From NCBI RefSeq assembly GCF_006345805.1, contig NW_021836166.1:1-64000 (forward strand): a DNA stretch of 64,000 nt, in the 5' to 3' direction. This document shows positions 1,936 through 51,125 of this stretch, in pieces. The translations under genes were made by a program, and so were the position numbers. The notes under the pieces are model-generated. The model was not told the origin of the DNA, searched no databases, and saw only the letters and a list, made by a program, of their open reading frames with translations. The stretch is from Octopus sinensis (lineage: Eukaryota). The first letter of the stretch is position 1, and the number at the start of each line of letters is the position of its first letter.

Positions 1936-2475
1936 TTAAAGGAAATTAAACATTTCCAAAGTTTTTATAACTACTCTGAGCCATCCAAGACTCTCGTCCA
2001 CTCCAATGAGGATGACGTCGAAGGATGGAAGCATCCCGTGAGTCACGTCGTGTCTGATTTGGACGACCCAATCGGGAATGTGCAGTTTTCTACAGCGTTC
2101 CACGAGTGACGAGCTGAGTTTTCCTTTGAGTCGTTCACTCATTAAATTGACGAATCGGACTATGGCCGTTCCGTAGGCGAGTTGGTGCATTAGGTTTGCT
2201 TGCTGTGGACGATTTTGCACGACGGTGAGGAGATTTATTGTCGAGTCGATGGCTACGGGCAGTTTGTCGTTCATTCTGCATTTTATGAAGTTGCGAACCT
2301 TGTTTTCCACACAAGCAGTCGATCCAGGCCATGTTTCACGAGTTGTGCATCTTTAGACCAGAGCTCGTTGGAAATATTGACGAATTCTGATCTTAAAACT
2401 CACAGTTAATGCAAACTCGTCAATCCACGCCACGTTGTTTTTATTTAAGCCAAACAAAATCACCGTCTTAACCAT
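1936..2475 (-). CDS. LAS1L: Las1-like ribosome biogenesis nuclease, N-terminal part (3'-truncated)
   Basis: Removing introns 2392-2416 (25 nt) and 2276-2298 (23 nt) gives VAWIDESEF...VWKTRMNDKLPVAIDST...AIVRFVN...IPDWVVQIRHDVTHGMLPS, the Las1 HEPN motif RHxxTH. Confidence 0.88.
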
Positions 2476-2507
2476 TAACTAACACGTTCAGGTGATTCCG
2501 ACACTTC

Positions 2508-3440
2508 TCAACAGTCGAGCCATCTTTTCACGATGTTCCGACCGTGACCCCACACACTTTCTGTATGTACGGTGAATGGTTTGTGGTCCATTTCCACGAT
2601 CCCCCCATTTGCCTCTACGAGAGACTCCAGTGTTCTATGGACAATTTTCCTATCGGTATGGTCCTTCAGTAGGTTGATAGATCTTTCTTGAATTTTTTCG
2701 ATTTTTAGCCGGTTCGTTGCCGCCAGGTTACAGCCCCAATCAGCACATGCATAGCCTATTGTTGGCTCGATATACTGCTTGTAAAGGGTCTCTACCCCTG
2801 GCGGATAAGTTCTCCCACAGTTCCAAAGGAAGGCTTTTACAAAATTGATCTTCTTTATACAGGTTGATACGATCGATCCTACGTGAGGTGAAAAACAGAG
2901 GAAAGTATCAAACGTTACTCCCAATATCTTCTGTGTTTTCTTTTGTGGTATTGGAATTCCGTTCAACGTGACATCAATAGTTTTCGTCCCCATCTTCCTA
3001 TTTTTCGTGAATAGAGTGACTGCTGACTTTTCGGAACATGCATGTAGTCTGTTTTCATATAGCCATCCATATAAGTCGTCCAGTATTCTTTGTAGTCTTT
3101 CCTTCGCGTATTCGACATTTACATCCCTAGATGCGACAACTATGTCATCGGCATAAGAGAGTAGTATGTCATTATTATCCATAGGAACCGAAAGATAATT
3201 CAGAAACAAGTTGAAGAGGGTCGGGGATAAAGGAGAACCCTGGGGTACACCATTGGGCAATAAGCGTGATCTTGAACTCTCGTTCCCGACGCACACTTTC
3301 CCACGACGTCCGCTCAAAAAATTTGCTATCCATAGCTTCATAGGTGTAGAAATTTTTTTACTAAATATCTTTTGAATTAGGATCTTCCTTGGGACGGAGT
3401 CAAACGCTTTTTCAATGTCGATAGTGCATACAATCGATTT
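2508..3440 (-). mobile_element. Non-LTR retrotransposon RT, 3' part (Jockey/I-like)
   Basis: 277-aa ORF with GVPQGSPLSPTLFN, SYADD and KILGVTFD; DIEKAFDSV just upstream. Confidence 0.92.
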
Positions 3441-4419
3441 CTACTTTCATTTACTAAACAATCATTATTTATCAACAAAATTACTTAATTTAAAATATTT
3501 AGGGAAATGAATCCTGCCTTGGAGTAAGCCACTGCGTGTGTTCAGTCTTACTTTGAGACATTCAATTCTACTGACGGGATGGATCCTAAGTGATTTCCCG
3601 TATTTGAACCCTATTGGAGTGGGAAGTCATCGCATAGACTCCAAGAATGTCCTCTAACTAGGGAAAATTGCTGAATGTGTCGGAGACAAGGTCAACTGCT
3701 ATTGTCAGCTGTTCTATTACGTTGGAGTTTGAAGTATTTGTGTGTTGATATTGTAGATATTTTCTATTCTTACATCATTTGAGCACGTCGACGATCAGTT
3801 AGTTAAATTTAGAATTGTGTAAAATATTCATCGGGGACCAACTTATTATTCAACCATTACGGCGGACCGATTGTCGACCTGGCCATTTTCAGAATGATTG
3901 TTATCAATGGCAGTTTTATGAATGATTCATTTTTCTACCACGCATTTTCTCGATTTCTACACACACCTTCTTCCTTTCTTCATTCTCTTCTTTAAACCTC
4001 CGAGAAAATGCCTCTCGCTGTTTGAATGTCCAAATTCTAAAATAAATTAGTATCATATTTGGTTGATTCGATACTACGACATTTTCCGACTTTTGCCATT
4101 TCTACTTATAAACAAGTTAAGAATAAACTCCACGTATGAGACTAATAAGAGAATGTCAAACAGAAAGGTATGATTAAAACCAGGTCTGTAAGTCCACAAA
4201 TTGGAATAAACCAAGAATGCCTGGAATGTAACACACCTTCATTAATAGCTCGATTCGTGAAAATATAATTTGGAGATTTAATTGCAATAAAACGTCAGGT
4301 GGTGTTGTGGGACACGAATGGCCAGTAGCAAGGACGTGATTTGCCTATACGCGTTCATTCCCATTAAATTCTCTATCTAAACAAATTCATTTCTCAAAGT
4401 AGTATTCCAATAAGTAAAC

Positions 4420-4930: not shown

Positions 4931-5889
4931 GGTGGGGGACACCCCCGTCCTGGTGTCCTTCCAACACGAGGAGGAGTATTCCACGATGCTGGCTATCGCG
5001 ACTGAAATGTGTAGCCGTCTGCTCAGTCTGTAGATTGTCTGATTCCACCCAGTTAGTAAAACTACACAAACTCACCTCGGAGTTGCAGAGACTGGTGTGT
5101 CTCCCTAAGTCGAGTCGAGTGAATTCGCGGAGGGGGAGTCTGTTTGGTGCCATTCTGTCCAATGTGGTGGCCGCGAAGTCTGGAATTGACAGTTTGTGAA
5201 TTTGGTTTTGTTTTAATTGTTATTTTATAGCACCAGTAAGTAGAAGACATTCTCATAACAAGACAAAAGCTCGATTTTGTTACCACCCGACATAACCAGT
5301 CGTGTCTAATATGTAATTTCGCAGAGGAAATGGATTTCGACGAAATAAAGGTTTCTTATCTATATTCCCCGTTTGTGACAGCGTGCCTTCTATAACGATT
5401 TTAATTCATTTAATTAACGCCATTTTTTCTTCGGTCCCGAAAATGGCGAGCACCAGAGGTTTTACTGTATGTAACAAAAATTATTTGTGTTTTTATTGTT
5501 TAGTTAAGTTAAATTTTCAAGTTAATTTTTTTAGTTTGTAGGTTAATAAAGTTATTTTTTGGTTAAATTTTTTATTTTTAGCTTAAATAATTGATTTGAT
5601 GTTTGAAAAATGAACTTCCATGCAAATTGAATTTTTTGGTGTTAAAAAAAGAGGCGTTTCCTTTTTATGCCCCATGCAACCACTGAGGGTTGCATTTACT
5701 AATCCCCCTTATTTGTTTCATTACCTGACTTTCTTAGCCTGTAGCATTTTACAGTAGAATGAAAGCAGGTTTTATAAATTCCTATCCATATGGCCATATG
5801 GCCACAGGTAATTTACTTTAAATTATATGTAAACAAGCTAATCAATGACAGTTTTGTCTGCTCCAATATTTTAATACAGTTTTGTCTGC

Positions 5890-6860
5890 CTTGGCTTGAG
5901 ATCCTATTCCGATCTTGCCCTCCCGGCATTCCTATCCGCTCATGACGCTTCTCGTACTCTCTCAGACATCGTTCTTAGAAACCTCCCCGAACGGAAATTG
6001 TCTGAAGTTTACTCTGCAGCCCGTGGTCGGTGGGAGGCTCGGTTTGGTTCGAAGCTGCCCAACTCTCAATCTGTACAGCGTCAATGGGACGAAATCTTTT
6101 GTCAGGCAATCTTCGAAGGCCTGCTTCCTGTCTCCAATCAACACCGTGTCGCTTTCCTCCGTGCAGGTCGCTGTGAAGGCAGCGGTGTCTGGTTAAAGGC
6201 TCTCCCTCTCCCTCCATCGGGAACCTGTTGGATAAGGAATGCCTAAGAATTGCAATCTCCCTCCGTGTCGGGCTGAAAATCTGCCAGACGCACAAATGCC
6301 GTTGTGGGGGAACTGTTGACGAGTACGGTTTGCATCCCCTCGCTTGCCGGCGGAGTGCCGGTCGTGCCCCCCGTCACAGTGAACTCAACTCAGTCATACA
6401 GAGAGCCCTCGCTTCAGCAGGCATCCCGTCAATCCTTGAACCTGTTGGTTTGGATAGAGGGGATGGCAAACGCCCTGACGGCATGTCCACCTTCCCCTAC
6501 GATCAGGGGAAATCCCTTATTTGGGATTCTACCTGCTCGGACACGTTCTCGCTGGGAAATCTCGCTCTGTCCGCCGCCAATCCTGGGCACGCTTCCAGGC
6601 AGGCCGAGGAGCGAAAGATTCTCAAGTACGGCCACCTCTCCAACTCGCTGTTCTTTACTCCAATTGCCGTGGAGTCCTCCGGGATCTTCGGTCCCAAGAC
6701 ACTCCGCTTCCTTCGCTCGCTCGGTCGACGGATTTCAAGGACTAGTCACAATCCAAGAGAGTTTTCTTGGCTCCTGGAACGTCTGTCGATTGCTGTGATC
6801 CGAGGGAACGGCTTCGCCATTCGCGAGGCTGGTCGGGTGTCTCGTGAGGCCTTTAATTAA
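5890..6860 (+). mobile_element. CRE-like non-LTR retrotransposon 3' part (CCHC + restriction-like endonuclease)
   Basis: CRCG...HPLAC, RHSELN, DGKRPDG, WDSTC and PIAVESSG motifs; A-rich tail at about 6888. Confidence 0.9.
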
Positions 6861-7274
6861 CATAGCTATCTTTAATTTCTTTCTTGCAAAAAAAAAAGTA
6901 ATTACAAGTACAGGTCAAAAAAAAAAAATTTTAATTAATTCGTCAATTATTAGTCAATTCTACCTAATTCTCTTAAAATTTTCCCCATCCTCAGTGACGT
7001 TTAATTCTGCTCAGATATTAGAATTAAGGTTTCTTATCTATATTTCCTGTTTGTGACTGCGTGCCTTCTATACTAAGTCCTTTGATATCGTTTAAAAACA
7101 GTACATTAATGGAATTCTGGTGCGAAATAAGAATTGTATATCCATTACTCAGTTAATTCCATTTCACATAACATATCTGTGAAACGGCAATGTCACATCG
7201 TGTATATTTAAAGTCAAAGTATTGAAATCGTCTTAAAGTAGAAGATGATAAAGCCGAACATTGATACTTTAAAC

Positions 7275-17049: not shown

Positions 17050-18320
17050 TTAAAATCTCCAATTCACAAAGTCCGGCTCTGAAATTCACGTCGCACTTTG
17101 TACTAAAAATAAAAATACAACAAAAAACCAAATATCAACAAAATGCTGCAAAACCTCATCTCCTGACTGAACTACAAGAATTTGTGAAAAATCTTCGTTT
17201 TCTTGGAAATAAAAGAAGAATTCAATATACGAACAAAAGCCAACAAACGGATGACTGCAATTGGCCAGTTCCACCTAAAATGGACTCGAATGATTACCAG
17301 GGTCACTCCAATGGCCCAAATGTCAGCCATTACTGTATAAAAGTTCAAAGCATCGACAGAATTCATACATAAACGTTCTGGCTAGTCACATCAACCAATA
17401 AAAATACCGCCATATATTTAAAAGTGCCCAATCCAGTTGCCGCAGACGAGTTTTCTAAAAATCCCAAAATGCCAAAATCGCATATTTTGACTGAACCCTC
17501 CAAATTGAATAAAATATTTGCAGGTTTTATGTCTACAGCAGATTTCCGTCAACATTCTGATTTCTGTGCATTATATTCTTTGATTTCAGATAAACCAGTC
17601 CGGAGGAGACCTTAAATATTAGCACATATTTGGGTACAGCGTAGGCCACACAGGACAGGACTCTGGTCGGGACTTTCAACTGGTATTTGTGTAGAATACA
17701 ACCAAAACTGGAGTTCATTGGTTCCATAAATATCAGTAAAAAGTCCTAAATTAGTCTTCTAAGAATAAACTTGTGTTTTTGCACTTCCATAATAATTGAC
17801 GATGTGTACGTGAGAGCACGTAATCGTGTCGAGAATGGCTTCTTCTCTGTTTGCAGAATAATTGTCTCCGGATAATAAATATTCCTGAAATGATAAAATT
17901 CGGAACCTTGATGTTTTCCGAACTGATGCGAGGATTTAACCGAATGACTTTGACATGCTTCAAGCTTCAAAGTAATGATGCTTTAGTTTGGAAGTTTTAT
18001 AACATCAATGTTTGGAAAATTGTTCTTTAAAATGTGACCTGGCGCGTTTTAAAGAAGTAAATGAAAATTTTTGTTATATTGCTTCAGTTCATCATCAAGT
18101 AGCAGCATTATACAATTAAACAAATAACTGGTCATTCAATCTTTTGAATTTTCATAATAATGACAGTATTTTACAACATTGAACACTTTGATTTCTTTCT
18201 GTGTCCGATAACAAAAGTTCTCATTTTAATTGATCCAGTTGAATAAAACATAAAGCAACAGTTATTCGAACTTTAGATTGTTTTACGCCTTTTCTTTACT
18301 TAATAAAATCGTTCTTGTAG
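17050..18320 (-). pseudogene. MAP kinase kinase (STE7-like) with many micro-introns, apparently disrupted
   Basis: Minus-strand pieces NIMHR, EGSVKICDFGI, PERL, ADIWAIGVTL, MELANCSHPF. Confidence 0.7.
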
Positions 18321-27300: not shown

Positions 27301-27320
27301 GATATTCAATCCGATATTCA

Positions 27321-28778
27321 ATGAATTGTCACAACAAAGGTTGTCTTTTTATGAACGAAGCTCTCGGTAAGGTAGTGGGCTTGGAAACGTCACCTCCTGA
27401 AAGCTTACCCTTTCTTGGAAGGTACTTCTTCTTGGACAAGGTCCCTTTTGAAGTCAATTCGTTCCAAAACCCACTTAGAACCTTACCTAAACTTTGTTTG
27501 GGTCTATCTCATGCTCAATGGCAGCAACGCTTAGCCGGCTATTCCATTACAGATTCCTCCACTCCAATTATAGGGGATTACATAAAGGCTAACTATGACG
27601 GCAAAACTAAGGCTTCCCTTGACACCATGGGGTATATTCTTGTAGGGAAATACGGAGAACTTTTCAGCAATTACAACACTGAAAGATCCGTAGAGGTGAT
27701 GTGCGATGCGCTCAACATTTCCAAGGGTGCTTTGATTATAGCACAGGAAAAGATTTTGCGCAGAAGTCCCGTCAACCTCATTCCTAATGACTTGTCCCCA
27801 AAGTCATTGGAGCCTTGTAAACAGCCTGATACTTTAGACTTTACTGTTGCCGTCCCCTCGTGTTGGTACAATCCACCTGTAGATGATCTCTGTCTTCTTA
27901 AGTGCCTCGAGTATGCTTACGCAATTAATGGTTATGAAAACGTTTCCTTAGGATCCTTTGTCCCTGAGTTAAGTCGGTACTCTTTCCAGACTGTTGATGG
28001 TAATACGTTTAAAGATTTCTTGGATTCAATTTCTAGAATTCTGCGTGTTAACATTAGGGTTATAGTTGAGTCCTTCGACGCTTGTTCCCCTTTTCGTTAT
28101 GATTCTTCGCGTATTAATGGTACCTTTGGAGACACCAACATTTTGTTGTCCTGCTCCAGATGCCATTATTTTTTACACATTCCATCTGTGTCTATTCCTA
28201 AAATAAGTCTTTCTATTCTTCAAAAGAAACCCTCAATTATTGAAAGAATTCTTTTTGAACATTCACTGATTTTCAAACGTCTATGCGTGTTTGACTTTAT
28301 CTTCTATGTTGACATCAAAGATGTCTCATTGATCACTAAGTTAGACAGTGTAAACGTGTTGTATTCCCCTGCTGTTCCGAGATTTAGAGTCCTTTATCCG
28401 AACATCATGTCTTTTGTTGAGATTAGCGATTCTGTGCAACCATCGCTCAGTTCCTTGAGCGAGGAGGCACTTGATGTGAGTCTCTTCATTTTTAAAACAA
28501 ATAACTACTCATTCTTTGAGCAGTTAAAGAACATCTTTCCGAATTTGATTGTATTAAGCGATAACAAACTTATCGTCAGCCGGGGTATTGGCGAGATTGG
28601 CTTCTTCGCTAAATTTAAGAAGTTGCCTCTTTCTCCGCATCAGGCTGACTTGGATAAGCCTTGCAACGTGTCTTTTGATTCTATGAAGGGTCCAATTCGC
28701 CAACATTACTTAACTGTTGTTAAGCAGGCGTTGGATACCTTTTTACGAACGAACAACGAACAGATTTTATTGACTTAG
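27321..28778 (+). CDS. Intronless 485-aa ORF; putative RNA-virus polyprotein fragment with OTU/papain-like protease motif
   Basis: DDLCLLKCLEYA and ILLSCSRCHYF suggest a Cys/His dyad; T-rich and intron-free, unlike the host genes here. Confidence 0.45.
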   Translation: MNCHNKGCLFMNEALGKVVGLETSPPESLPFLGRYFFLDKVPFEVNSFQNPLRTLPKLCLGLSHAQWQQRLAGYSITDSSTPIIGDYIKANYDGKTKASLDTMGYILVGKYGELFSNYNTERSVEVMCDALNISKGALIIAQEKILRRSPVNLIPNDLSPKSLEPCKQPDTLDFTVAVPSCWYNPPVDDLCLLKCLEYAYAINGYENVSLGSFVPELSRYSFQTVDGNTFKDFLDSISRILRVNIRVIVESFDACSPFRYDSSRINGTFGDTNILLSCSRCHYFLHIPSVSIPKISLSILQKKPSIIERILFEHSLIFKRLCVFDFIFYVDIKDVSLITKLDSVNVLYSPAVPRFRVLYPNIMSFVEISDSVQPSLSSLSEEALDVSLFIFKTNNYSFFEQLKNIFPNLIVLSDNKLIVSRGIGEIGFFAKFKKLPLSPHQADLDKPCNVSFDSMKGPIRQHYLTVVKQALDTFLRTNNEQILLT

Positions 28779-28861
28779 CAACCGAAAAAGAAGAGTTATA
28801 TGAAAAGGTTTTATTAAAATCGAGACACCGAAAGCCTCCTCCTTGCTTTCCTTTTGGAGAT

Positions 28862-29610
28862 GTGGAAATAACCTCCTCCGACCCAAGCACAAAGATGTTT
28901 AGACTAGGATCCAAGGCGTTCAAGACCCTTCAACCAAAGGAGCCTATTTCGATAGGTGAACCAAGATCCAGGGACTTGCTCGTTACGCCGACTACTGCGG
29001 AATGGACACAGGCATTTATGAGGGCGCTGTTTCCAATAAGGTACAGCCAAGCGAAGTCCCGTAATCCAGAAGCAGTAACGGCGCTCATGGAACGTTACAA
29101 CGCTGCTATGGCAAGGTTGTCACCCTTATTCAGCCCGGACCAGAACCTGGTGGCAAAATTCTCTATAAAATATGCAGAAGAACAAGGACTGGACAAGCTA
29201 TGCTGTTTATTAGATAAAATGTTAGGTCTAAATCCAGCAGACCCTATAGCAATACTAAGATTCTGCACAGTGGGGTTTTATAACGGCGGGAACGCTGTGC
29301 TGTCGAGGATTATAACCTTAGGAACTGTCTTGAAAACCTCAGAGGAACGGTCTCTCTTGATACAAGGGTTGTTTGTCCCGACTTTCAGGGACGAGGTCAG
29401 AAAGGCACTAGGGCACTTCTGTGAAGTAACCTCTAGTGACCACCTTTGCGTCTACCAGAAAGGTCTTGGACTAGTGAGAGCCTCGGCCTTTAGTTCCACC
29501 TCTCTGCCAGGCCTGTATTTATTCATGAGTACGATTGGCGGCATGTTGACCGTGACCAAATTGTTTTATTCCAGGAGTGTTCTGGAGACCGAAGGACCTA
29601 CGTACCAAAA
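28862..29610 (+). other. Endogenous viral element: Mononegavirales (rhabdovirus-like) nucleoprotein fragment
   Basis: YQKGLGLVRASAFSSTSLPGLYLFMSTIGGML parallels the rhabdovirus N RNA-binding motif (FGLSSKSPYSSVKNPAFHFWGQLTALLL in VSV); intronless; the ORF runs on into AT-rich DNA to 29725. Confidence 0.65.
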
Positions 29611-34127: not shown

Positions 34128-36072
34128 AGAAGTGCATTTTCAGTGGCTAACTCTAACATAGAACTAACCGCAGGTCTGTGAGTTACCCCAATTCATCAGG
34201 CGAAAAGGGCAGGTCTGTCCTTCTGTGGACCAACTGTCTCATGGTCTCCCCCATCGGCCAAACTGTATTCCTACCAAGTCGGTCCGTCCACTGACTTTGA
34301 TTTCATGCAATATTTACGACGGATTCAACTATATCTTCTCAAAGGAGGGGGAGTTGCGAGTAATCACGTGCTGACATACTTAGATGAAGGGGGGAATGTT
34401 GTCGGGGGAGTCCGTGCCCCATCGGAGTCCTCTCACAATGTACTTGCTCTCCCTTCTCTTTAAACGGTGACTTATTGCCCTTATTGTAGACATTTGAAGG
34501 AAGCAGGACTGTTGTGTTGTGGAAATGAGTTCTACGACTCCTCTGGGTTGTGTTGATGTGATGACTGTAGGAGTGGAGTGGCCTTGGGCATTCGGGACGG
34601 GGAAGAGGGCTATTATTTGGTGGCATCCCCCAAACAAAGAGGGAGGGGTGAGGGATCTTGGTTGGAATACCTCAACTCATTCCACCGCCGACATCTCCAG
34701 CACGTATTCAGGGAATGGAGTCTGGTAGTAGCCAAGCCGAGTGTAGTGAAGGGCCGACGACTGAGTGTGACTCCGCGGACTGTAAGGAACTGTTGATATG
34801 GCAGTTCTCCTCTGAACGTGCCCCTCTCCATTATGTGTTAATATACCCCGATAGTCATGCCGAGTCAATATTCACCTTCATGGACAAACTCCGTGAATAT
34901 GTGGGGACTCAGTTTGGGTGTGTTCTTGAAAGAGTGTCCTTGTATGTTTGATATGTCCAATTCAGGGTGGACGGAGTGTCCATCGGGGAGTATGTGAGTG
35001 CTCTGCAGGATAGTCCCCCGCGGATATCTTCATGTGTGTATTCCCCAAGTTCGGTGACTGGGGGTACTGTCAAGTCAAATGGGAGACCTGTGTAGCTCTG
35101 GGAGGTACTCATTGGTGGGATTGTCAGTCAACAGCCAAGTGATCAGACTAAGGACTATTCGGAGAGTGGTCAGTGGGGATCTCTCCATGCAGTCACTCGC
35201 CCGACAAGTATTGGCTAAATGTGGTCGTCTCCACACACCCGTCACATTTCCCCCCAGTGTGGCCAGGGGGATGAAGGGGGACTGCATGTTGGTGGGGATG
35301 GACACCTTCCACCACTACGCCGTGTTCTTGACGAGTGTCACTGCTGTTGTCTCCTCACTTGGGTCTGTCTTTGGTCACAAAGTCCCACTCTTTCATAACC
35401 AAGTCGAGTTTGTCGAGACTGGGAAGGAAATAGACGAACATGCATTCAGACATGTGTTGAGTGAGTGTGTCATTCGAGAGGACAGACTGTCTCCGTACCT
35501 GGCAGTCCTTCAATGGTTGTCTCCCTTCCACCGTGGTCATTTTCCGTGACGGAATCGGGGATGAAATTTTGGAGCAAGTTCTGTCGGTGAAAGTGTCGCA
35601 AGTGAGGGAGGCCATGTCCTGTGGTGCCCAACAGGCCGGGACTGTCCCCCCAGACTGTCCTTCATCGTAGTCAACAAGCGAGTGAGTAATTTGGTGTACC
35701 CCGTCAAGTCCCGGTTGGTGGGGACTGTCGTCGACTCGGTGGTGACGCGGTGTAATCAGTCAGTGTTGTGAGTCATGCCAGATTTGACTATTAAATGTCT
35801 TCCTGTGATTTTGGGGAACAGTCTGGTGGGATGTTGACTTACTATAACGTGTTGGTGAATGAGGACGTTTTGTCCCCTGATTTGTGTCAGTATTTGTCGT
35901 TCGGACTTACTCAGACGTATGCTGTCTTTCCAGTTTGTTTTTTTTTGTTTTTTGTCAGCAATCCACTGTCCCCTCCGTCTGCTTGTATGCCCATAAACTG
36001 GCCAGTCTGACTGGGAAGTATTTGCTCGATGACATTTACCTCTCATTTAATCGAGGAATCTTTTATTTATAG
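34128..36072 (+). CDS. piwi: Piwi-clade Argonaute apparently lacking PAZ (N-L1-L2-MID-PIWI); multi-intron
   Basis: MLVGMD, VVIFRDGIG, FIVVNKRV, GTVVDSVVT, VPSVCLYAHKLA and C-terminal IFYL*; introns include 34360-34383, 34467-34489, 34547-34570; start codon not resolved; at least one homopolymer frameshift near 35640. Confidence 0.9.
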
Positions 36073-47570: not shown

Positions 47571-48555
47571 GAGAACAACAATACAATCATAAAATGTGTT
47601 CACCTCTAAATTAATTTATAGACACGAATGAGATTTCGAAAATTAGACATATTCAAGATTGCTTGTACGGAAATATGGCCCTCAGCACACATATTTTTAT
47701 CAAATGATGTTATTTTAGGCTAAATAAATCCTAAAGGCGAATCCAGGCCAAAACATCTTGAATTTGTTAAATTTTGGACAATGACACACAATAAATTTCA
47801 TCTCGTTGTGTATATGTTTGTCTCTCCTTTGATGGGTCACCAAGGATTATAGATTTTGGATCAGCCGGTGCCATCCACAGCGTAATCTCCAAAGTGCCGA
47901 TGAATACAACATTCCACTACATGAATACAACCAAAGTGCCACAGCAGCCTCAAGGGTTGCAAAGAACCCGCAGGCCAAAAGCCCAGTCCGCTGGGTAAAA
48001 GCCAATCCCACAGAATCAGTCTGGACAAAAGGGTCTCCCTCAAGTCCGTCCAAAGTCGATGCCTATATTCAGACGTCGCCGGTCCCCAACACACTCACAA
48101 GCTCGAAGTCAAACACTAATAAGTGCCATAACTCAGAAGTGGTCCGCTCGGCTGTCCTCCCCAAGAAGGCAGGAACCCACCGTGACAAAGCTTTGCCACA
48201 ACAAAGTCCCCACTCGGATCAGGACGTACACAACAGAGATGCCCTCATGGAATTCTTCCGCTCTACGCCAGGGACTGGCTCGAGCATCTTCTACTGCGAA
48301 AAACTCCAAGTCCGTAACCTCACTATCATCGAGGGGACACTATGTGAATTCCTCTCCCTTGAGGTGAAAACCGAATCTTTCTTGTTTAGGCCATGGAATC
48401 TGCTCGTAACAATACCGGCGTCTAAATAAAACAATTCAGATGGCTGTCGCCTCGCAATAAAAAATATTTGGGGCTGTTTTCTTATAAATTAAATTATTAC
48501 TTTTGAGGAATGAACTACCACAATAAAAAGTACACAAAGAAATTAGAAGCATTGA

Positions 48556-49956
48556 ATGAGTCAAAACACAAATAGACCAGATGAAGCCGCTGGCAGAGCA
48601 GATTTAAGCGATGTTCAATCCTTGCAGTCAACTAGAAGCGCATTCTCAGGATCATCTGTCAGTCAGCTTGTTCGTAGACCAGGCGTTGTTGAGACTGACG
48701 TCATTTTTAGCAAACTGACGAGGATGAGAAATGTAAGAGAGGCAGTGAATAACCTCTCTGATGAGAATCTGAAAGAAAATCCAGAGTTCCACAAAAATAT
48801 GTTAGAACTCACTGACATATCGGTTTTTGTGGACAACGATTTGGACAAACCTGTCACTTTCGACAAGAACTATTTTGACAACTTGCCTAGTGACAAGATC
48901 AAAGAGGTCTTGAATGATTTCACTGACAGAGCTGAGAAGGTGATGTTAGAGAACCAGGAAGAGCAACAAATATGCAGGCAAGATGCCTTGATGAACGATC
49001 CAAGTTTAATCCGAAATGACTTTGTGTCTAGTGCATCCGCAAGCAAGAACACAATGAGAAGCCGGAAGGAATACTTTGAAAATAGGGACAGAATACAAAG
49101 TGTTCTTCCACTAAGGGGGACACTTAAAGAAGAGGACCAGGTCGTATATGATGAGATGATCCTTCAGAAGGAAAAACTAAACAGGCTAACTTCTATCCTT
49201 CCCCTTAGAGTGATGAGTGTCGACCATATGAAAGGCCTTCATGAATTGGTCGAGACACTCAGTGATGAGGGTTTAACAGCTCTGGATAGCTTGATAAAGA
49301 TGAATTTGTGTGACCATGTCGGACATTATAAATCAGAGATCTCAAGATACATCCAGACAAACGAGATCGGGAAATTAACTGAGGTTATCAGTAGACAATA
49401 TGATCCTTCACAAATGGTTGACCTTAGGCGAGACTCTATGAACATCCCACTATTCACCACTGTGCCTGTACACGCATTTACAGACCAGCATGACATTGAC
49501 CCACACAATGGTCGTGGTTCTGACAATGTGGACCCATCACTCTCTTACTTTGATGACAATCAAAGTTACAGGAATTACCATGGTGACATGATGGAGAAAT
49601 CGATAATTGTAAAAGACAGATCAGCGTCGGGCGGGATCCTCCTAAGAACCAATGTGGGCTCTATAGGTAGATTTCACCCAAGGCATCTTCGAGTTATAAC
49701 CAGAAGTGTGGACATCAACATATTCCTGTCATCAGAGAATAGGAAGAATGGCAGATCAGCAGCCGGGTTAATATATGTGGGTTATAGAATGAATTGCTTA
49801 AAAGCACAATTCATACAGGCTCCATTTCTGACAAAAAGCATGCTCAGAACAGGGAAAATACTGTTCTTCTCTTGCGTTATGATGGACAATGTCCAGTGTT
49901 ACGTTTGCACGCCAGATGGTGACAAGCCATCAGATAAATGCGCCAAAAGGCTGTAA
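48556..49956 (+). CDS. Intact intronless 466-aa orphan ORF; retroposed mRNA, probably from a negative-strand RNA virus
   Basis: 13-bp direct repeats AAAAAGTACACAA (48525-48537, 50021-50033) bracket a short 5'UTR, the ORF, a 3'UTR and ATG-A9; purine-rich and CpG-poor. Retroposition is well supported; viral origin is inferred. Confidence 0.7.
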   Translation: MSQNTNRPDEAAGRADLSDVQSLQSTRSAFSGSSVSQLVRRPGVVETDVIFSKLTRMRNVREAVNNLSDENLKENPEFHKNMLELTDISVFVDNDLDKPVTFDKNYFDNLPSDKIKEVLNDFTDRAEKVMLENQEEQQICRQDALMNDPSLIRNDFVSSASASKNTMRSRKEYFENRDRIQSVLPLRGTLKEEDQVVYDEMILQKEKLNRLTSILPLRVMSVDHMKGLHELVETLSDEGLTALDSLIKMNLCDHVGHYKSEISRYIQTNEIGKLTEVISRQYDPSQMVDLRRDSMNIPLFTTVPVHAFTDQHDIDPHNGRGSDNVDPSLSYFDDNQSYRNYHGDMMEKSIIVKDRSASGGILLRTNVGSIGRFHPRHLRVITRSVDINIFLSSENRKNGRSAAGLIYVGYRMNCLKAQFIQAPFLTKSMLRTGKILFFSCVMMDNVQCYVCTPDGDKPSDKCAKRL

Positions 49957-50033
49957 TTAGATGTTAAGTTATTAACACTTTCTTTGTTTGGTCTCTAACA
50001 CCCACTAATCAAAATGAAAAAAAAAGTACACAA

Positions 50034-50415
50034 TAAAATACTAAAAAATCAAAATAAACAATAAAATACTAGACAAAAATAAATTTAATTCAAGAAATCC
50101 TTATGAATGAAGATTAATTAATTGATAAAATGAATACAAATTTACTTGCAAAATAAACTTTATAGAAAATATTTTACCAGTAGTCAATTTAAATAATCTT
50201 CAAACAAATAAAAAAACAAAATATTATAAAAATAAAGTATTAATTGCAAGAAAAAATAAAACCAGAATTAACAACCACAAGCACAACAAAAAAATAACAT
50301 AACAGCAAGCTGTACATAACACGTGATATGTAATTTATCCTAATTAAGTCAATAAATTTAAAATATTTAAAAAAATAAATAAATAAAATTTAATTTCTGT
50401 TTGAATTCAGCTAGT
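50034..50415 (+). repeat. Merlin 3' subterminal region copy
   Basis: Homologous to the reverse of 15806-16125, ending TTGAATTCAGCTAG. Confidence 0.8.
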
Positions 50416-50499
50416 TTACTTTTTAATACTTTTTAAATAGGAATAGAATAGAATGTTTATTGATCAGAAATTGAAAGAAAACAAGGAAAGATCGAAGAG

Positions 50500-50822: not shown

Positions 50823-51125
50823 AAAATTAAATATACAAGGAATGAAGGAAAGAGTGGTGCAAAACGATTTCGAAAGATATTAATTGACAATATACAAGGA
50901 ATTACTAAGCCAGCAATAAGAAGACTATGTCGAAAAGGAGGTGTTCAAAGAATTTCTGGAAAAATTTACGAGGAGACACGTTCTGTCCTTAAAATTTTTA
51001 TCGAGCAAACTGTTCGTGATTGTATTTCTTACACTGAACATGCCAAAAGAAAAACTGTTATCGCAATGGATTTTGTTAATGCCTTGAAACGTCAAGGTAG
51101 GACAATTTATGGATTTGGTGGATAA
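50823..51125 (+). CDS. H4: Divergent histone H4 (first exon/start not resolved; not in the ORF track)
   Basis: [92 protein letters not shown]. Confidence 0.95.

Follow-up and report, generated by a model that had tools for sequence, protein, structure and literature searches.

The locus described here raises the question of where an uninterrupted 466-codon reading frame, flanked on both sides by the same 13-bp sequence, came from and how it reached its present place in an assembly filed under Octopus sinensis. A sequence-only reading of the window, by which we mean the whole 64,000-nt stretch of DNA that was analysed, had proposed a complete orphan mRNA of a negative-strand RNA virus, retro-inserted with an oligo(A) tail, and the elements that it listed (the 13-bp repeat on both sides, an 18-nt leader, a 466-aa ORF and a 3′ untranslated region of about 60 nt) all read as claimed. 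We consider the insert to be probably the whole mRNA of a novel rhabdovirus-like negative-strand virus that was captured recently by a LINE. A viral origin as such is very likely, and a rhabdovirus-like one is a likely, somewhat less secure, assignment within it.

Features of the insert and of its surroundings in the window
Feature	Position	Strand	Basis
Target-site duplication (13 bp), left copy, AAAAAGTACACAA	48525..48537	+	sequence; occurs once at each empty paralogous site fetched
Target-site duplication, right copy, AAAAAGTACACAA	50021..50033	+	sequence; empty paralogous sites
Motif AAAGAAATT resembling a gene start, at the insert's 5′ edge	48536..48544	+	found at 5 of 8 other rhabdovirus-like 5′ ends
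18-nt 5′ leader of the inserted RNA	48538..48555	+	sequence; edge set by empty sites
Intact 466-aa orphan ORF	48556..49956	+	translation; uninterrupted, without homologue in outside databases
3′ untranslated stretch	49957..50013	+	sequence
Gene-end-like ATG followed by A9	50014..50025	+	sequence; short-read contig gapless across it
Multicopy host repeat carrying the insert, left part	48426..48537	+	92–96% identity to four other contigs
Right part of the same multicopy host repeat	50034..50480	+	95–97% identity to the same four contigs
Rhabdovirus-like nucleoprotein fragment, a separate element	28868..29596	+	PF00945 E=0.0034, below curated cut-off; paralogues
MAP2K-like host gene with 23–26-nt intron-like stretches	17275..17770	-	Pkinase E=3e-10

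The 1.5-kb stretch between the two copies of the target site (48538 to 50020) is a true insertion, and on this point we are close to certain. At all four paralogous sites fetched from the same assembly (C9082, C11710, C8311 and C10781), AAAAAGTACACAA occurs once with the flanks joined, and the flanks in the window are 92–97% identical to these empty sites. Since the 13-mer is single there, the repeat is a true target-site duplication and not a conserved viral gene junction, an alternative that had been entertained from the sequence and is hereby refuted; and since the flanks are joined on other contigs, the target belongs to a multicopy host repeat. The duplication is exactly 13 bp long, with no extension of the repeat on either side. 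The empty sites, rather than a shuffle count, are the decisive test for it: three matches at no more than one mismatch were found against a mean of 0.35, and 2 of 100 shuffles reach three.

The same four empty sites bear out the proposed target-primed insertion by a LINE. APE-type LINE endonucleases nick a T-run at a T/AAAA-type consensus, and the nicked T-run then primes on poly(A). In the left target-site copy an A5 is preceded by T, resembling such a cut site, and AT/AAAAAG is the cut site at all empty sites. Besides this T/AAAA-type cut, the LINE features include the duplication with its empty site and a short A-tail that adds 4 A beyond the 5 of the target; LINE debris of both APE and RLE type is present in the contigs. 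The A-run, 60 nt from the stop codon, is an A9 (50017–50025), of which 5 A lie within the right duplication and 4 are certainly added. In the mechanism that we propose, a viral polymerase would have begun the mRNA at an AAAGA-type start and ended it at an ATG-A(n) stop, a host LINE endonuclease would have nicked the lower strand at 5′-TTTTT/AT, and the T5 end would have primed on the start of the mRNA poly(A), with copying running to the first transcript base.

The 5′ edge of the insert coincides with a gene-start-like motif, AAAGAAATT, the first two A of which are common to the target-site duplication. We compared it with eight other N or gene-2 starts that have an ATG, C11370 and C10060 being counted as one. 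The pattern AAAGA[GTA]A[CT][TA] lies no more than 70 nt from the ATG at five of these eight (N of C6088, C10781 and C381, and gene 2 of C6088 and C8311), a count to be read with the facts that the motif was framed after the insert had been seen and that two of the carriers, C381 and C10781, are close relatives; its background is 102 in 484,408 positions. Of the three starts without the motif, C6250 and C2775 carry AAACA and C11370 carries neither. In C381 and C8311 the motif begins at most 4 nt from the end of the host-repeat homology, the similarity between C381 and C10781 begins exactly at it, and in C6088 it directly follows TTTTAA between the full N frame and gene 2. An apparent start motif at the exact edge of the insert, common to rhabdovirus-like genes, is good but not blind evidence.

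At the other end, the insert reads AATG-A9 and not the (T)ATG-A7 signal that it had been credited with, and the only natural junction, that of C6088, ends in TTTT-A5 and not in ATG-A7. A search with a 13-letter leader pattern stayed at chance level (155 vs 183 in the control). For the salmon louse rhabdovirus LSRV-No127, the accessible part of its description gives starts of TAAGAA or CAAGAA and ends of TATG-A7 (PMC4234470), so that a likeness to the insert may lie in the AAGAA-type start and the ATG-A7 end. The negative-strand viral origin claimed by the sequence-only reading finds its support in the start and end signals together with the accompanying rhabdovirus-like pieces, and not in protein homology.

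The 466-aa protein is acidic in its first third (pI 4.6) and basic in its last quarter (pI 10.0), and it lacks a membrane-spanning stretch, no hydrophobic segment exceeding 1.2. It had no match in Pfam and no zinc knuckle, and searches of PDB sequences, of the Atlas (with the whole protein and with its C-terminal part) and of IMG/VR were likewise empty; phmmer against 1.84 billion representatives gave 0 matches and hence no cellular homologue, and none of 6328 candidates at 256–816 aa from the 5.8-billion set matched. Predicted folds were poor, with a pLDDT of 35 for the whole protein and of 30 for the last 171 aa (from a 5-row alignment). Two low-confidence models have a beta-rich C-terminal part, and BFVD structure searches with both low-pLDDT models gave no match at E 0.001, a result that is meaningless at that quality. 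The designation as an orphan therefore holds for outside databases and fails within the assembly, where the protein has four relatives.

A genome protein search, in which 9 of 9 candidates were scored, gave nine matches in five places (the window, C12462, C12471, C12418 and C5037), all of them intronless. The copies on C12462, C12471 and C5037 are 97–99% alike and so represent one variant, which makes three variants in all. These are 79–87% identical in protein, with pS 0.74–0.91 and dN 0.07–0.12, and conservation along the protein is even, at 78–94% per 50 aa with no hypervariable hinge. All four relatives outside the window are truncated or broken, and neither tail nor duplication was seen at the three whose ends were inspected; nor does any copy of the 466-aa gene stand in natural order beside N, G or L in the assembly. 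On the strength of the substitution pattern, saturated silent sites combined with strong constraint would fit RNA-virus strains captured separately better than they would fit host paralogues. The constraint belongs to the virus and not to the insert. The open frame would then reflect a young insertion and not host use; of the earlier suggestion that the gene was recently inserted or retained by selection, the first half accounts for the open frame, and no sign of selective retention was seen.

Many RNA-virus pieces, rhabdovirus-like and other, occur in this set of small contigs. The N-like frame of the window has 72 genome matches, 41 of which, by manual count, fall in its viral part and form about four sequence types, the rest matching a repeat at the start of the frame. 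Genome-wide, PF00946 (mononegaviral L) gave 33 matches, 4 on the large contig C23 and 29 elsewhere; PF00945 matched once only, on a large contig, without picking up the divergent N copies; and a G piece passes the PF00974 cut-off. An L piece is most similar to rhabdovirus L, with 33–40% identity to the seven longest of 8 matches, and against the PDB its top chain reached E=4e-69 vs 6e-19 for the best below the top two. Large contigs also carry rhabdovirus-like L and N fossils of their own (C23:23140149-23141653 and C9:72705869-72706150), which probably belong to the main animal and not to the cobiont, the co-sequenced organism considered below.

Several further observations concern this debris. 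In C6088 (L054:4187-6872), an N-like frame of full length (581 aa) is followed in natural order by 128 nt of intergenic sequence and a gene-2 start; we take the 5′ end of this locus to resemble a rhabdovirus leader, and its full-length N had no homologue in database searches. In the window, a 491-codon frame (27303-29596, +) runs into the rhabdovirus-like N fragment, forming a chimeric cluster beside a gag-like element; the frame itself has no Pfam match, and its tail motif is presumably that of a nodavirus-like RdRp. C11370 (L040:584-1477, -), C9311 and C10060 carry a C/T-rich orphan frame of 298 codons that is linked to an N fragment; it is possibly a partiti-like capsid, and neither the PDB nor Pfam held a match for it. 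On C12418 (L023:2643-4260), C12814 and C12598 there are partiti-like RdRp copies that are nearly complete but interrupted by internal stops, and a further short orphan frame lies in the same viral cluster of C12418 (L022:9734-10000). A Piwi-domain fragment (35058-35546, +; PF02171 E=4e-5, under cut-off) was also seen in the window.

In many loci the N, G, L, noda-like and partiti-like pieces are spliced head to tail, and because they are shuffled together in this way, adjacency cannot assign the orphan gene to any of them. This bears on the alternative that survives best, namely that some other RNA virus supplied the insert as an entire segment or mRNA, for instance a partiti-like capsid or accessory segment, by the same LINE route. 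Partitivirus segments have lengths compatible with 1.48 kb, and a partiti-like RdRp (PF00680 E=2e-22) is found some 950 bp away from the C12418 copy of the gene, with others about 10 kb from the copies on C12462 and C12471; such nearness is uninformative, however, where all these pieces are mixed. Base and dinucleotide composition places the orphan nearest to the N and L fragments and at a distance from those of partiti- and noda-like type (T 0.30, G 0.18 and CpG 0.93 in the insert vs 0.25, 0.23 and 0.53 in the partiti RdRp), in a test in which one transposon RT frame came 7th nearest. Moreover, the start motif is one common to rhabdovirus-like genes. We therefore regard a virus of another kind as unlikely, though it takes the largest share of what the rhabdovirus-like reading leaves. 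On a partitivirus capsid as such, the lack of any PDB or Pfam match for the 466-aa protein and the poor fold models speak neither for nor against.

A retrocopy of the usual kind, derived from a fast-evolving host gene, would have the same anatomy, with duplication, A-tail and no introns, and its parent could be missing from a partial cobiont assembly, which may indeed be incomplete and in which the genome search scores the best candidates only. An intron-bearing parent was nonetheless absent among the nine matches, all of which are intronless pieces amid viral and transposon debris, so that the parent gene that would have made this an ordinary retrocopy did not appear. The synonymously saturated variants would, in addition, call for three old, constrained and unseen parents, and the protein has no cellular homologue among the representatives searched; we hold this explanation to be quite improbable. 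Slightly less probable still is the ORF of a novel transposable element, as an ORF1- or env-like passenger. The insert sits amid LINE, CRE-like and gag-like debris and its relatives abut such elements, whereas the gene is found in five places only, with no constant element around the copies, and lacks any Pfam match or zinc knuckle. No homology to a retrotransposon ORF1 emerged either, as comparison with the gag-like and RT frames of the fetched loci gave nothing at E up to 10 except one match at E 8.8.

Short reads allow the rhabdovirus-like insertion to be checked against assembly error, and against that only, as run X1 is from the same sample and not independent. One X1 contig (48508-50072) spans the whole insert without a gap and differs from it by one letter, at 48900, a third codon position. 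It overlaps the sequence past the junctions by 52 letters on the right and by 30 on the left, one below the bridging threshold. The idea that the two repeats mark junctions between viral genes, or that free viral sequence was misassembled here, is left with a negligible chance despite this short left overlap, as the 13-mer lies within a host repeat, the right junction is bridged and 30 letters is presumably what a contig built from 31-letter words would give at a branch point. Depth in X1, which does not equal copy number, is 53 on the insert vs 86–116 on several nearby low-copy contigs and up to 187 on others, a weak hint that the insertion site may not be fixed. Elsewhere in the window (2433-3477 and 5863-6928), short-read contigs skip transposon copies, which may be presence/absence variation or empty paralogous sites.

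Which gene of such a virus was captured is less clear. In pairwise tests the 466-aa protein matches no N, G or L piece, and rhabdovirus M proteins are normally about 200–230 aa, so by size an identity as M is unlikely. Our first choice, held tentatively and at somewhat less than even confidence, is that it may be the product of the P position, the cofactor linking L to the N-coated template, with an accessory protein next. Vesiculovirus P runs from acidic to basic, and rhabdovirus P is commonly unalignable between genera and typically has a hypervariable hinge; accessory genes, too, often show no homology. The insert protein resembles P in its acidic N-terminus, basic C-terminus and lack of a membrane segment, and differs from it in being longer than most P, evenly conserved and, in the low-confidence models, beta-rich in its C-terminal part.

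By eye, residues 148–291 look similar to one sub-family of the gene that follows N. Against the best sub-family profile, with the family chosen after looking, 13 of 2000 shuffles score higher; pairwise p values are 0.07–0.08, the combined profile is at chance level, and hhalign gives a probability under 1%. Homology of the 466-aa protein to the gene after N may be followed as a weak lead. The gene after N itself forms an orphan family (L070, L082 and 17 more matches) with two sub-families about 30% alike, and seems more conserved than N, which is odd for a P-position gene. An HPRH motif common to another fragment was dropped from consideration, as it belongs to N.

The organism in whose genome the insert lies can be approached through its introns. 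In the MAP2K-like gene, GT..AG stretches of 25, 26 and 23 nt interrupt the kinase motifs (by eye, from DNA only), and about six intron-like stretches, most of 22–30 nt, occur in a symplekin gene on C10696 (again by eye); as putative introns, those of the MAP2K-like gene support the earlier statement that the genome is dense with introns. Outside animals, ciliates and microsporidia are exceptions in having introns of this size. Among 51 animal genomes, introns below 30 nt are given only for myxobolid myxozoans and a dicyemid in the accessible part of one survey (PMC13644364). Run X3, from the same sample and similar in size to X1, yielded only 22–41-letter matches over both regions compared; missing cover is no evidence on its own and serves here as a hint beside the intron sizes. 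From the tiny introns and the absence of the region from X3 together, we infer a co-sequenced parasite, and the small contigs probably belong to such a tiny-intron dicyemid or myxozoan. No RNA dataset was listed as holding the insert. In run X2, a single contig of 268 nt covers part of the ORF at a depth of 4.5; as the run is not recorded as RNA, we take nothing from this about expression. A divergent histone H4-like copy in a high-copy repeat (50823-51122, +) has an X2 depth of 633 vs about 10 beside it.

The mechanism is a known one. Endogenous bornavirus-like elements, in the accessible part of a report on them, have a viral end signal, a short poly(A), a duplication, an intact ORF and a LINE route (PMC4865735), and the insert shares these with EBLN and eEBLL-1, its own end signal being a putative one. 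As far as that text goes, eEBLL-1 is old and has no start signal, whereas the insert looks recent and appears to keep both signals; the insert differs from EBLN in that its protein is unrecognisable, and it is not bornaviral by any test run. With the rhabdovirus EVEs of insects and ticks it has in common the presence of N, G and L fragments in an invertebrate genome. Insect EVEs are described by Katzourakis and Gifford, in the portion available, as having no apparent duplications or tails (PMC2987831), in contrast to the insert, which has both; its own four relatives are truncated. Flatworm rhabdoviruses vary in gene content, according to the accessible sections of one study (PMC9241645). From the rhabdoviruses of parasites the present sequences differ in that N and the 466-aa ORF have no detectable homologue, while the identity of the L piece to its full-length matches does not exceed 40%.

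A literature search at the level of listings and abstract openings gave no description of the element or of a dicyemid or myxozoan virus, though supplements might list such sequences; the accessible parts of bioRxiv 10.1101/2023.11.03.565523 and PMC12548735 likewise describe neither the element nor such viruses. Against this known mechanism stand a gene and a viral lineage unmatched in the databases searched, and the host group is perhaps new too. A fuller picture, which we consider speculative and rather doubtful, is that the 466-aa protein would be a large, tightly conserved, folded new rhabdovirus protein, with N and gene 2 likewise without sequenced relatives, and that its virus would infect a parasite akin to dicyemids or myxozoans. 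This host would still be storing entire viral mRNAs in clusters rich in repeats, along with chimeric pieces from no fewer than five lineages (three or more rhabdo-like, one partiti-like and one noda-like), and the clusters would supply an antiviral memory based on Piwi.

The element is invisible to homology searches, and its anatomy alone reveals it as an insert. A clean insertion of this kind can carry over an entire gene, transcription signals included, from a virus that has never been sequenced, the insert sequence offers a bait for finding the source virus, and its protein is a target for structure determination. If the contigs are parasitic, as they probably are, the wrong animal would be given credit for the genes and viral fossils on them, and the parasite group may have rhabdovirus-like viruses of its own.
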